A stretch of DNA of 54,827 nucleotides from Minisyncoccia bacterium (GTDB taxonomy: Bacteria > Patescibacteriota > Minisyncoccia > Phycocordibacterales > JAACPR01). The stretch is taken from the NCBI GenBank assembly GCA_044375695.1, contig JBILMG010000001.1:1-54827 (forward strand), written 5' to 3'. Under the pieces are notes generated by a model. That model ran no database searches and was not told the DNA's origin. It saw only the letters and a list, made by a program, of their open reading frames with translations. The translations under genes and the position numbers were made by a program. Shown one piece after another: positions 5,476 to 33,124 of this stretch. The number at the start of each line of letters is the position of its first letter. The first letter of the stretch is position 1.

Positions 5476-6246
5476 GTGCAGAACCTCTTGCCGGCCATTC
5501 TCGCCGCCTTCGCCGTGGCGCTCACCGCTTTCTCCGGCGCAGCTTTCCTGTCGCGCCGACTGGGCGAGTGGATCTCGGCGCGTCTCTCGCTCCTGGTGGC
5601 GCTCGCCGCCGGCGTGCTCGCCACGGTGTCGTGGCACGTTCTCGAGGAGGCCGCGCACGAGCTCGGTGCCCCGGTAGCGCTCGGCGTCGCCGCGCTCGCG
5701 GCTGCCGTCGCCTGGGGCGACCACCGCCTGGTGCCAGAGTCTCACTGCCACGACGAAGACGGCGTCGCCGGCCACGCGCACGGCCACTCGCACGTGCGGT
5801 CCGCGCGCTCGGTCATTGCCGGCGACGCGCTGCACTCGGCGGCGGACGGCCTCGCGCTCGGCTCGGTGTTCGCGCTTTCTCCGGCCGCCGGCTACGCCGC
5901 CGCGGCGGGAATCTTCCTGCACGAGGCGGTGCGCCAGTCTTCCCAGTTTTTCATTTTCCGCGCGGCGGGCTTCTCTCCGGCCCGGGCCATCCGCACGAGC
6001 GTGCTCCTCGCCTTCGCCGTCGTGCCCGGCGCCGCGCTCGGCGTCAGCCTCTCGGGTCTCGCCGACTGGGTAGCCCCGACTTTGGCCGCGCTCGCCGCCG
6101 GGGCCTTTGCCGAAATTCTCTTCTTTGACCTAGCCCCTTCGGTCGCCCGGGCCGCGCGCTCGTCGCGTCCGCTGCGCCACGTTGCCTCGTTCGCGGCCGG
6201 CGTCGTGATCGCCCTCGTCGCCTCGTCTCTCGGCGAAGGGCACTAA
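5476..6246 (+). CDS. ZIP family metal transporter
   Basis: Multi-TM protein with a His-rich loop (HCHDEDGVAGHAHGHSH), GDALHSAADGLALG and FLHEAVRQ. Confidence 0.75.
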   Translation: MQNLLPAILAAFAVALTAFSGAAFLSRRLGEWISARLSLLVALAAGVLATVSWHVLEEAAHELGAPVALGVAALAAAVAWGDHRLVPESHCHDEDGVAGHAHGHSHVRSARSVIAGDALHSAADGLALGSVFALSPAAGYAAAAGIFLHEAVRQSSQFFIFRAAGFSPARAIRTSVLLAFAVVPGAALGVSLSGLADWVAPTLAALAAGAFAEILFFDLAPSVARAARSSRPLRHVASFAAGVVIALVASSLGEGH

Positions 6247-7364: not shown

Positions 7365-7531
7365 CGCGCTGAGCCAGCGAGAGGATTTGAAGGCCGCAGC
7401 CGACCGAGCGTAGCAAGGTCCGGCCCCGTCCGAAGGGGCCGGCGGCGAGGCGGGGTCGCGGGTACTTGGCGGATCGGCGCTCTGGCCTTCAGAAATTTGA
7501 AGAGTGCTGATCCGCTTAGTAACCCGTGACC
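7365..7531 (+). repeat. tRNA-linked structured element, tRNA-Thr-matched copy (no regenerated 3' tRNA end)
   Basis: 7365-7391 is the perfect 27-nt reverse complement of 7298-7324 (tRNA T loop to trailer). It is followed by the scaffold GGCCGCAGC...GGCGAGGCGGGGTCGCGGGTACTTGG..hairpin..CGCTTAGTAACCCGTGACC. Confidence 0.8.
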
Positions 7532-7632
7532 AAATCCCCGAAATCAAGCCTGAGGCGCCTTTTCCGTGAGGACCTAGCACCGGCCTGAGCGCGACGGCGG
7601 GGCCGAGAGCGGTGACCACCCCCACCTCGCCA

Positions 7633-28370: not shown

Positions 28371-28865
28371 ATGCTGAGCCAAAGAGACCTAGAGCAGATT
28401 CGCCAAATCACCCGCGAGGTATCCGCGGAGGTTTCCAGAGAGGTTCTTCGGGAAGAGCTACCCAAAGCTTTCGAGATTTTCGAAATCAGAATGGACCGAA
28501 AAATGGACGCTCGCTTCGCCGCGCAGGAGCGCTGGATCACCACCCGCTTCGATCGGCTCGAGGGCGAAATCGACGGCTTGGCCCAGGCTACCGCGGCCGG
28601 ATTTGCCCGCGTGGACGAGCGCTTCGCTCAGGTGGACGAGCGCTTCGCTCAGGTGGATGAACGCTTCGATCAGGTGGATGAACGCTTCGCTCGGGTAGAT
28701 GAGCGCTTCGATCAAATGGACGAACACCTTACCCAGGTCGACGCCCGGCTGGAGCGCGTCGAATCCAGGCTGGGCGCGGCTGACGCCCTCGACCCGGATG
28801 CTCCCGACGGCGAGGCGGGGGAGGGCCCGTGGCTCCCGCCGCTTCGCCCCGCGCCCGAACGTTAA
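28371..28865 (+). CDS. Coiled-coil protein with VDERFAQ heptad repeats
   Basis: TATAAT at 28356-28361, 9 nt before the ATG; six tandem heptads. Confidence 0.65.
   Translation: MLSQRDLEQIRQITREVSAEVSREVLREELPKAFEIFEIRMDRKMDARFAAQERWITTRFDRLEGEIDGLAQATAAGFARVDERFAQVDERFAQVDERFDQVDERFARVDERFDQMDEHLTQVDARLERVESRLGAADALDPDAPDGEAGEGPWLPPLRPAPER
28611..28736 (+). repeat. 21-bp tandem repeat x6 (in-frame heptads)
   Basis: GTGGACGAGCGCTTCGCTCAG repeated, with increasing divergence toward the 3' end. Confidence 0.9.
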
Positions 28866-28992
28866 GGCTTGGGGCCTTTCCCGGCCGTCCCCGTCCTTGA
28901 AGAAACCCCGAAACTAAGGTAATTTTTGCCCGTCCCGTCCGCTATTTGCCCGCCGCCCGTCTTGCCCTTTGCCCCCGTCCGTCCCTACCCAT

Positions 28993-29063
28993 TGCGGGAT
29001 CGTCTAATGGTAGGACCCACGACTCTGAATCGTGTTATCTAGGTTCGAATCCTAGTCCCGCAG
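28993..29063 (+). tRNA. tRNA-Gln (CTG)
   Basis: TGCGGGA TC GTCT AATGGTA GGAC C CACGA CT-CTG-AA TCGTG TTAT CTAGG TTCGAAT CCTAG TCCCGCA G; no encoded CCA. Confidence 0.9.
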
Positions 29064-29109
29064 CAAAAACGAAAGCCTCGCCGCTAACCCGGCGAGGCTT
29101 TCGTTTTTG
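29064..29109 (+). terminator. Terminator hairpin after tRNA-Gln
   Basis: CAAAAACGAAAGCCTCGCCG-CTAACCC-GGCGAGGCTTTCGTTTTTG; the helix can extend outward into TCCCGCAG/CTGCGGGA. Confidence 0.8.
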
Positions 29110-29297
29110 CTGCGGGAAGCAACCGTGCGGGGCACGGTTGCGCCTAGGATTCGAAGGCCGCAGCGGGGTACCCGTCGCCCGGCCCTGCGGCGATGGGTCG
29201 CGAAGCGGGGTCGCGAGCACTTTGGCTTTTGGAATCCGTTCCAGAATCAGAGGATTCCAAAAGACTTAGTGACTCGTGACCGAGCCTAGTCCCGCAG
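29110..29297 (+). repeat. tRNA-linked structured element, Gln copy A
   Basis: CTGCGGGA-AGC-[AACCGTGC GGG GCACGGTT]-GCG-CCTAGGATTCGAAGGCCGCAGCG...GGGTCGCGAGCAC..hairpin..CTTAGTGACTCGTGACCGAG-CCTAGTCCCGCAG, then CCA. Confidence 0.85.
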
Positions 29298-29375
29298 CCA
29301 GCTTGAGCGAGGTTCCCATGTCCGAGGTGCCCTTGGTTCCAGCAGCAGAACCGCTGAAATCTCCTTTGTGTTACT

Positions 29376-30027: not shown

Positions 30028-30079
30028 CAGCAAAAAAGAAGCCCGGCCACCTTGGGGTGGCCGGGCTTCTTTTTTGCTG
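30028..30079 (+). terminator. Terminator hairpin preceding Gln copy B
   Basis: CAGCAAAAAAGAAGCCCGGCCAC-CTTGG-GGTGGCCGGGCTTCTTTTTTGCTG. Confidence 0.75.
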
Positions 30080-30259
30080 CGGGAAGCGAGGCAACTGCTT
30101 GCCTCGCGCCTAGGATTCGAAGGGCGCAGCGATGCCGGAGGCTTTGCGACGGCCGCGAGCCGGGGTCGCGGGTACTTAGCCGTTTGGCGGCCAGAAAAAG
30201 AAACTTCACCTTCGCCGCCAAATCGGCTTAGTAACCCGTGACCGAACCTAGTCCCGCAG
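30077..30259 (+). repeat. tRNA-linked structured element, Gln copy B
   Basis: Same architecture as copy A. The variable hairpin is GAGGCA-ACTGCT-TGCCTC, the basal helix is the GGGTAC/GTAACCC variant, and it ends CCTAGTCCCGCAG then ACA. Confidence 0.85.
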
Positions 30260-30290
30260 ACAGCTTGAGCGAGGTTCCTGTGTCCGAGGT

Positions 30291-30863: not shown

Positions 30864-30923
30864 GTGGGGTAGCCATCACCCCGCCACCAGAAAGGTTCTA
30901 ACGTCGTCCAGCGCCCGCAGCCA
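30864..30923 (+). repeat. Short variant inter-cassette element 1
   Basis: Hairpin GTGGGGT-AGCCATC-ACCCCGC followed by CACCA, then AGGTTCTAACGTCGTCCAGCGCCCGCAGCCA. Confidence 0.7.
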
Positions 30924-31888: not shown

Positions 31889-31949
31889 GGTGGGGTAACC
31901 CTCACCCCGCCATCGCCCAGGTTCGAACGTCGTCCAGCGCCCGCAGCCA
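31889..31949 (+). repeat. Short variant inter-cassette element 2
   Basis: Hairpin GGTGGGGT-AACCCTC-ACCCCGCC, then CAGGTTCGAACGTCGTCCAGCGCCCGCAGCCA; collinear with 30864-30923. Confidence 0.7.
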
Positions 31950-32659: not shown

Positions 32660-32711
32660 CAGCAAAAAGAATTGCCGGCCACCCCAAGGTGGCCGGCAAT
32701 TCTTTTTGCTG
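32660..32711 (+). terminator. Terminator hairpin preceding Gln copy C
   Basis: CAGCAAAAAGAATTGCCGGCCACC-CCAA-GGTGGCCGGCAATTCTTTTTGCTG. Confidence 0.75.
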
Positions 32712-32898
32712 CGGGAAGCGAACGTGGTGAACCCACGTTCGCGCCTAGGATTCGAAGGCCGCAGCGGGGTACCCGTCGCCCGGCCCTGCGGCGATGGGTC
32801 GCGAGGCGGGGTCGCGAGCACTTAGCCTTTCGGAATCCGTTCCAGAGTCAGAGGATTCCAAAAGACTTAGTGACTCGTGACCGAGCCTAGTCCCGCAA
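32709..32898 (+). repeat. tRNA-linked structured element, Gln copy C
   Basis: Near-identical to copy A except for the variable hairpin GAACGTGG-TGAAC-CCACGTTC; it ends CCTAGTCCCGCAA then CCA. Confidence 0.85.
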
Positions 32899-33124
32899 CC
32901 AACTCGTGCCAGGTTGTCGCGCTCGAGACGCGTCGGTGCCAGATAACGGGTATTCTCTTTTCGTATCTAAATGGGTGGGCGCTTACCAAAGACGGTAAGG
33001 TGTGCTAACGCACCATAACTTTTTGAAGTGCGAGAGACGCGGCGCTCTGGTTTTTAAAAAAATCACCAAACGGACTAGCTCAGCCTTAGCCGGCGGCGGC
33101 CCTCCTGGGCCTGCCCGACAAAAT

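Follow-up and report, generated by a model that had tools for sequence, protein, structure and literature searches.

A gene-free, strongly folded cassette with arms matching its host gene lies downstream of most tRNA genes in a Minisyncoccia genome

Introduction

What occupies the space immediately 3′ of the tRNA-Gln(CTG) gene in the window, the 54,827-nt stretch of a Minisyncoccia bacterium contig (JBILMG010000001.1) that was analyzed, and does it act as a folded strand? A sequence-only reading of positions 29110 to 29297 had proposed, from compensatory changes among a few copies and from G-T pairs restricted to one strand, that this region folds as RNA or as a single strand in the tRNA sense. 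These positions hold one copy of a strongly folded cassette of about 190 bases, here called E, that carries no gene and appears to be undescribed. We describe its architecture, its relationship to the host gene, its distribution and turnover, and the evidence for selection on its fold, and then weigh what it may be. The genome of the window (G000) is 0.85 Mb with 63% G+C, assembled in 70 contigs and 87.5% complete; G001 and G002 denote two congeneric genomes.

Results

Architecture of the cassette at tRNA-Gln

The tRNA-Gln(CTG) gene (28993 to 29064; ARAGORN, Rfam, and sequence) lies on the forward strand, as do all parts of this copy, and is followed directly by CAAAAA rather than CCA. Just upstream of it, a 164-aa coiled-coil ORF with only weak coiled-coil matches in Pfam carries six in-frame 21-nt repeats (VDERFAQ-like heptads; 28611 to 28736). 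Downstream, positions 29065 to 29108 form a symmetric hairpin of the layout A5-stem-loop-stem-T5, recognized by sequence and by the matching layout after most tRNAs, with its stem prolonged outward on its two sides by the tRNA end and the 5′ arm of E, respectively. This hairpin, the sequence of which is unique to each copy, appears to resemble a two-way terminator; a simple terminator scan did not flag it. With the hairpin included the unit spans about 230 bp, while E proper has about 190 bases and its core 126 nt (29156 to 29281).

The 5′ arm is built of two parts. Part 1, GCTGCGGGA (29109 to 29117), is the reverse complement of the acceptor 3′ strand of the tRNA plus N73-C74; part 2, CTAGGATTCGAA (29144 to 29155), corresponds to the reverse complement of tRNA positions T54 to 65, covering the T loop plus the 3′ strand of the T stem. 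Between them, exactly at the acceptor/T-stem boundary of the arm, is the junction hairpin AGC-AACCGTGC-GGG-GCACGGTT-GCG(C) (29118 to 29143), without which GCTGCGGGA plus CTAGGATTCGAA is the exact reverse complement of tRNA-Gln from T54 to C74. The core follows in two halves: (i) GGCC-GCAGC...GCGAAGC (29156 to 29206), in which sequence, alignment, and fold delineate a 3-bp helix, a conserved 3x2 G-N-A/G-A internal loop, and a variable middle hairpin; and (ii) a long hairpin, GGGGTCGCGAGCAC...GTGACTCGTGACC (29207 to 29281), defined by sequence, alignment, and covariation, with a conserved G.U, a bulged A, and a covarying distal stem. The trinucleotide GAG separates the core from the 3′ arm (29285 to 29300), which consists of CCTAGTCCCGCAGC plus CA, is a direct copy of the tRNA tail, and runs into the flank GCTTGAGCGAGGTTC. 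The same CCTAGTCCCGCAGC forms the final 14 nt of tRNA-Gln (29051 to 29064) and occurs for the second time at 29285 to 29298.

When folded, the sense strand of the full Gln element is predicted at −112.8 kcal/mol (z −7.5) compared with −99.8 kcal/mol for the antisense strand, and it adopts exactly the architecture outlined by the sequence-only reading. The minimum free energy (MFE) fold of 29109 to 29300 pairs GCUGCGGGA + CUAGG with CCUAG + UCCCGCAGC and terminates in CCA; the proposed 13-bp minihelix ending in G-CCA does exist in this copy, in the sequence as in the MFE fold.

Further copies and relics in the window

The 16-mer TTAGTRAYYCGTGACC, which lies in the core, occurs six times in the window where 0.03 occurrences are expected. 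Two additional forward-strand copies belong to the tRNA-Gln locus: copy 2 (30076 to 30262), with its own hairpin at 30040 to 30075 and the 3′ arm CCTAGTCCCGCAGACA, and copy 3 (32708 to 32901), likewise preceded by its own hairpin and ending in the 3′ arm CCTAGTCCCGCAACCA before an unrelated flank. Another forward-strand copy follows tRNA-Thr(CGT) (7370 to 7537); its 5′ arm is continuous, without a junction hairpin, and its 3′ arm is AAATCC only. On the reverse strand, the copy after tRNA-Asp (1248 to 1412) has the junction hairpin GGGACGC/GCGTCCC and a 3′ arm of only GAGTC, and relics of older copies are found beyond it (1058 to 1183), consisting of a GAGTCCC-bearing 3′ end and of another 5′ part, which is truncated. 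Also on this strand, the hairpin and first bases, TGGTCCC, of a copy after an initiator-type tRNA-Met (1 to 43) are cut by the contig end.

Between 29300 and 32700, small accessory genes stand in tandem at tRNA-Gln (a gene with no Pfam hit, bPH_2, RDD, and DUF805). The genes, of which the last three encode small membrane proteins, are spaced by copies of E or by short relics of the tRNA-Gln 3′ end (30864 to 30923 and 31889 to 31949), each of which ends in ...CCCGCAGCCA followed by GCTTGAGCG, and a congener has the same island left end after its tRNA-Gln and tRNA-Asn genes. Besides bearing E, the tRNA-Gln locus is a classical island array, in which copies 2 and 3 appear to have been earlier occupants that subsequent island integrations displaced.

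The arms follow the host gene

Among the copies parsed, the arms track the T-loop variants of the adjoining tRNA: AATCGAA is found for TTCGATT and ATTTGAA for TTCAAAT, and even the unusual T loop TGCAAAT is matched by an arm reading ...TTTGCA. The 5′ arm stops opposite T54 in 62 of 76 copies and continues for 1 to 3 more tRNA-matching nucleotides in 11, while the 3′ arm begins at C56 (50 copies) or, in two copies each, at T55 or T54. Several of the departures of the 5′ arm from perfect complementarity leave a G.U with the partner on the sense strand. One identical junction hairpin (AGCGAGGCAACTGCTTGCCTCGCG) is found between arms specific for Gln, Lys, and Gly.

Arm length differs between lineages. 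In most G000 copies the 3′ arm is shortened to 6 to 12 nt and the acceptor half of the minihelix is missing, whereas in lower-copy genomes it usually extends at full length to N73 and sometimes to CCA; in other lineages a full-length 3′ arm is often combined with a 5′ arm that covers just the T part. A few copies are located upstream of a tRNA, between pieces of its 5′ portion, or adjoin non-tRNA sequence. The former were observed in two genomes (L037 and L038 in G023, L110 in G277), and in G023 the copies have tRNA positions 1 to 12 on one side and, on the other, a piece beginning within the D loop, as though E had entered the D loop of an additional, incomplete tRNA copy. The latter include two loci (L103 in G327 and L104 in G240, around 1370 to 1640) at which the arms of E repeat a non-tRNA sequence (…CGAAAACAATCCCCGAACGCTGCAGTAA…), where an Rfam search found no gene.

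Where the 5′ arm meets the tRNA end, the two form a long perfect palindrome around the hairpin. After tRNA-Phe (contig C13 of G000, 6095 to 6150) and other tRNAs that are free of E, the hairpin likewise pairs with the last six bases of the tRNA (CGGCAC…GTGCCG), and the lineage seems generally prone to long palindromes that take in the tRNA end. The core-less palindrome GGATTCGAATCC was considered as a pre-existing insertion site and rejected, none being found next to a tRNA.

Abundance and distribution

The 16-mer TTAGTRAYYCGTGACC occurs 38 times in G000, compared with 0 to 1 hits for a control pattern, and nhmmer searches with two seed sets recovered about 55 copies of E, which fall into two subfamilies according to the last hairpin, long in A and short in B. 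By a strict parse, E follows at least 31 of the 45 tRNA genes of G000, plus the tmRNA gene, and reading downstream of every tRNA of this genome revealed the same layout after most of them. At the tmRNA locus (contig C60, 11115 to 11734, reverse strand), the gene is followed by a hairpin and then by an E with arms matching the tmRNA 3′ end; this arrangement was also seen in an unrelated genome of the phylum (L101).

The congeneric genomes yielded 63 and 34 motif hits and other genera of the order 0 to 7, with controls at zero. A covariance model of the core, with at most 13 candidates scored per genome, matched in 18 of 301 genomes of the phylum, spread over many families, and 27 of the 30 foreign copies lie 13 to 112 nt downstream of a tRNA or tmRNA on the same strand. 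Among viral contigs, 46 exact matches to the core 16-mer were detected and five of them reached an E-value of at most 0.01 by the model: one clear E locus (78.8 bits, with a second weak hit in its stack) and three weak ones at 24 to 27 bits. The clear locus, at the end of a 34.7-kb IMG/VR contig classed as viral (L128, 2840 to 3200, reverse strand), holds at least two stacked copies of E that have hairpins and tail repeats; in the surrounding 3.3 kb no tRNA was detected by ARAGORN, and no phage context for E emerged from the viral-contig matches.

Rfam, with its ribozyme and bridge and omega RNA families, matched only the five tRNAs of the window and not E, and when E-values up to 10 were admitted for 28980 to 29320 only chance-level hairpin hits were returned. 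A full-text literature search found no description of E; its nearest items were a tRNA-downstream palindrome of Methanopyrus and phage att sites in the T loop.

Insertion and turnover

At the tRNA-Gln gene of G001, the sequence reads ...CCTAGTCCCGCAGCCA|GCTTGAGCGAGGTTC (quoted also as ...CCCGCAGCCA|GCTTGAGCGAGGTTC), with the gene-encoded CCA joining the flank directly, and this junction recurs in the window after the 3′ arm of copy 1 (29285 to 29315) and of copy 2. Relative to the G001 state, the hairpin, 5′ arm, and core sit between two copies of CCTAGTCCCGCAGC. Since the congener has tRNA-Gln-CCA joined straight to the flank, the hairpin and E are shown by this comparison to be an insertion that duplicated the tRNA tail; an empty allele of the Gln locus would read ...CCCGCAGC joined directly to CAGCTTGAG. 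Gln is, however, the sole clean empty site, and the flank there is itself an island end, for which integration into the 3′ arm is in principle an alternative. The G-CCA end of the minihelix is most simply explained as the gene-encoded CCA of tRNA-Gln displaced by the insertion, because the right-hand tail copy keeps the original CCA and flank, and it is therefore not evidence for CCA addition at the RNA level.

Comparison of orthologous tRNA loci indicates that occupancy changes between congeners. The tRNA-His and tRNA-Pro-GGG loci have E in G001 and are empty in G000, with the Pro-GGG hairpin being orthologous in both; E is missing from Arg-CCT, Pro-TGG, Leu-CAA, and Arg-GCG in G001 and from Lys-TTT and Asp in G002. 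The Tyr and elongator Met loci have subfamily A in G000 and B in G002, and in G002 the 3′-terminal ~25 nt of an older A copy persist downstream together with its tail repeat. Relics of older copies are common (e.g., Ile-GAT, Asp at 1058 to 1183, and Ala-TGC). These comparisons show that E has been gained, replaced, and stacked on a short evolutionary time scale.

The core is selected to fold on the tRNA-sense strand

Each structural variant from which the fold had been proposed was recovered. The sequence-variable junction hairpins flanked by AGC...GCG are present in four versions at their places: AACCGTGC/GCACGGTT (29121 to 29139), GAGGCA/TGCCTC (Gln copy 2), GAACGTGG/CCACGTTC (Gln copy 3), and the Asp version given above. 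Both versions of the covarying basal helix were found, and the whole genome holds four (GAGCAC/GTGACTC, GGGTAC/GTAACCC, GAACAC/GTGATTC, and GGGCAC/GTGACCC) that have the bulged A in common. The three distal stems, unlike in sequence yet still paired, are as quoted, and the two G.T pairs of the Thr distal stem are real.

Whether the covariation extends to a larger alignment, the check that the sequence-only reading had called for, was examined with two sets of copies, and it holds in both. The 29 family-A copies of G000 gave an RNAalifold consensus of 32 pairs in which 96.8% of the cells are paired, versus 83.6% in shuffles and 33 to 40% in slid-structure controls; 19 of the 32 pairs changed on both sides, and none of 500 shuffles matched the observed value by any of five measures. 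For 30 distinct copies from 17 other genomes of the phylum (G+C 0.42 to 0.66), 94.7% of the cells are paired versus 65.5% in shuffles, with both-sided changes in 21 of 23 pairs and the observed values reached by none of 500 shuffles; this second alignment was fitted to the covariance model, which favors the structure.

The pairing is also strand specific. Cells with G.U outnumber those with A.C by 48 to 6 in the own-genome set and 45 to 6 in the foreign copies, or about 8 to 1, and the near-invariant basal-helix G.U, which sits in GGTCG/TGACC, is kept in all 29 own-genome copies and in 26 of the 30 foreign ones. The sense strand is the more stable in 47 of 47 cores (−63.2 versus −53.9 kcal/mol), and conservation extends to the positions of bulges and mismatches and to the unpaired core nucleotides GGAGC, GCGAG, and GGGG, which are kept across families of very different G+C content. 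We conclude that the core is under selection to fold and on the tRNA-sense strand only, as the larger alignments, other families of the phylum included, bear out. The junction hairpin, found in 50 of the 74 copies parsed from three congeneric genomes and some relatives, is almost always perfect, with 437 Watson-Crick to 20 G.U pairs and usually the loop CUGC; it has no sense-strand bias and so carries no strand information.

Genes that could move the cassette

No ORF was found within the cassettes or adjoining them in the tRNA-downstream listing, and a promoter scan found no promoter-like site. The reverse transcriptase profile RVT_1 matched nothing in G000 or G002 and gave a single weak hit in G001 (genomes 87 to 92% complete); with no reverse transcriptase found in G000, retro-mobility and a role as primer-binding site were set aside. 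Mobilization by a Y1 (HUH) transposase of the RAYT type was rejected in turn: G000 has neither a PF01797 match nor a tblastn hit, and the genes of the congeners, four in G001 and one in G002, are tied to a different palindrome, GGCTAAGGCTGGGTTTAT, that flanks them, with no hit to the E model nearby. These loci (L092 to L095 in G001 and G002) encode Y1 transposase-like proteins of 227 to 244 aa with the motifs YH.xNRG and LMPNH.HL. Each genome has one tyrosine recombinase (contig 23, 10933 to 11466, in G000), which is syntenic in G000 and G001.

Discussion

The reading that we favor, though with considerable reserve, is that E represents a phylum-wide family of non-autonomous mobile cassettes at the 3′ ends of tRNA and tmRNA genes, with the folded sense strand as the active form and Patescibacteria-type small genomes as the host range. 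The unit comprises (i) the symmetric hairpin; (ii) a 5′ arm complementary, in reverse, to the stretch of the host gene between T54 and the gene end, and frequently interrupted by a perfect hairpin where the acceptor and T parts meet; (iii) the conserved two-hairpin core; and (iv) a 3′ arm in which the host gene is repeated from C56 on. The folded strand, RNA or DNA, would be the propagating form, and its closing stem would present a double-stranded replica of the target from the T loop to the 3′ end. Arms of this kind may be templated on the local gene, with switch points within the T-loop sequence TTCGAA, which is palindromic and near-universal among tRNAs. Joining would presumably be performed by a host function rather than by an enzyme encoded on the element, and there are two candidates: the one tyrosine recombinase, putatively of Xer type, working on a strand folded back on itself, by analogy to integron attC and CTX phage attP, or template switching or recombination linked to replication or uptake and anchored on the conserved tRNA. 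The G.T wobbles and hairpins fit a folded DNA strand and an RNA equally well, and the tRNA-sense strand would also be the lagging-strand template if tRNA genes run with replication. Several points count against the mobile-cassette reading: no intermediate, circle, or excision product was observed; multi-step template switching is an uneconomical account of clean insertions that arose independently dozens of times; the conserved G.U, the conserved internal loop, and the position of the junction hairpin, which recalls a tRNA, are more RNA-like than recombination-site-like; and at the completeness of G000 an enzyme gene could be missing from the assembly. A bolder form, which we regard as unlikely, is that E is a self-programming mobile element free of protein genes, in which a folded core of about 75 to 125 nt moves among genes ending in a T arm, the arms are recopied outward from TTCGAA so that the strand becomes a replica of its insertion site, and catalysis comes either from a universal host enzyme that the core recruits or from the core itself.

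The main rival, possible but on balance doubtful, is that E is a functional noncoding RNA, produced by read-through of the tRNA, folded as a minihelix, and released by the tRNA machinery (RNase P, 3′ trimming, and the CCA-adding enzyme). Beside its acceptor and T stems, the junction hairpin would stand in for the tRNA body and the core for the T loop; the RNA would act in maturation or stability of the cognate tRNA or as a decoy, and it would spread passively by recombination with the tRNA and 3′ arm as homology. The strict co-orientation with the tRNA speaks for such an RNA, as do the sense-strand specificity of pairing and G.U conservation, the position of the junction hairpin exactly where a tRNA body leaves the acceptor/T helix, the retention in lower-copy genomes of a 3′ arm reaching N73 or even CCA, and the conserved G-N-A/G-A internal loop. 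Yet a strong hairpin with a T run stands between the tRNA and E, no promoter-like site was found, and orthologous tRNAs vary in occupancy and subfamily among congeners while relics accumulate, which is unlike the behavior of a needed RNA. The loss of the acceptor half of the minihelix from most G000 copies, the reduction of the 5′ arm to its T part in many lineages, and the copies upstream of a tRNA or beside non-tRNA sequence likewise fit this explanation poorly, and the CCA is accounted for by the displaced gene end.

That the apparent covariation merely reflects maintenance of DNA palindromes, with quasi-palindrome template switching copying one arm onto the other in a neutral repeat of no functional fold, is very unlikely. 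The junction and A-run/T-run hairpins do behave in this manner, being nearly always perfect, different in sequence, and without strand bias, and the long palindrome of 5′ arm and tRNA end, together with the extended palindrome at tRNA-Phe where E is lacking, would be in keeping with it. However, template switching would erase wobbles, and in the core one G.U is kept, and G.U exceeds A.C, at the frequencies given above; unpaired nucleotides, bulges, and mismatch positions are kept as well. It is highly improbable that the repeats are ordinary attL/attR relics of integrase-driven islands or prophages in tRNA genes: such islands are characteristically recognized by a direct repeat of the tRNA 3′ part and a true cassette array with tRNA-Gln 3′-end relics shares the locus, but most units are gene-free at ~230 bp, more than 30 different tRNAs are occupied in one genome whose sole tyrosine recombinase is a single syntenic gene, the same core is found behind different tRNAs, and an inverted target copy and a conserved structured core are foreign to att sites, so that this explanation suits the short relics inside the Gln array and not E.

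Genomes of the CPR (Patescibacteria) are minimal, and yet about 1% of G000 consists of one noncoding structured element tied to the genes of translation RNAs. If E is mobile without an enzyme of its own, it exemplifies a novel means by which DNA selects and copies its target and offers a natural scaffold with exchangeable, target-matched arms; if it is an RNA, almost all tRNAs of these organisms are accompanied by an unrecognized structured partner. Either way, E marks tRNA loci of accessory-gene exchange, and it likely breaks assemblies and misleads the annotation of tRNAs and islands in thousands of metagenome-assembled genomes.

Comparison with known systems

E resembles integron attC sites and the CTX phage attP(+) in that structure is conserved while sequence is not, with a strand-specific signal in the alignments, and by analogy to these sites its folded single strand may recreate a duplex recombination partner. 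As with attC, E occurs together with cassette arrays at one locus, and an Xer-type enzyme of the host could serve it. Unlike attC, E has no R/L boxes, no IntI-type integrase was identified for it, and most of its units are free of cargo; it also departs from both attC and CTX attP in that its stem replicates a different target in each copy (more than 30 tRNAs) and in the two-hairpin core at its apex.

With the islands and prophages of tRNA and tmRNA genes, in particular the class with crossover in the T loop, E shares a target extending from the T loop to the 3′ end, the direct repeat of the tail, and stacked insertions. A direct repeat bounding the insert, as expected of island att sites, is present at tRNA-Gln (14 nt, 29051 to 29064 and 29285 to 29298, with the empty-site comparison), whereas genes inside the insert are not found in E, the bPH_2, RDD, and DUF805 ORFs being cargo of the neighboring array. 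In contrast to such islands, E is only ~0.2 kb, carries no integrase or other gene, has an extra inverted target copy and a folded core, and occupies nearly all tRNA species with one family.

Like REP/REPIN elements with RAYT and like MITEs, E is a short, gene-free, multicopy hairpin repeat of intergenic regions with strand-specific structure and uneven copy number between lineages. It differs from REPIN/RAYT systems in that G000 has no Y1 gene and those of the congeners are flanked by another palindrome, and from REPINs and MITEs in that it lacks fixed terminal repeats, its ends being copies of the target. The stretch of about 21 nt complementary to a tRNA 3′ end recalls retroviral primer-binding sites; however, the complement fits the gene (…GCAAAA) rather than the mature CCA end, and no reverse transcriptase was found. 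Finally, the Gln copy has an acceptor/T-arm minihelix ending in NCCA, as do tRNA-like structures (the tmRNA domain, YrlA, and viral TLS). The coaxial acceptor and T-stem helix with 3′ NCCA is seen in the MFE fold of this copy and not in most G000 copies, and a free T loop or elbow for tRNA enzymes is not formed, as the 126-nt core interrupts it and the 3′ half pairs with the 5′ arm; in contrast to known tRNA-like structures, E has no Rfam match and bears its core in place of the T loop.
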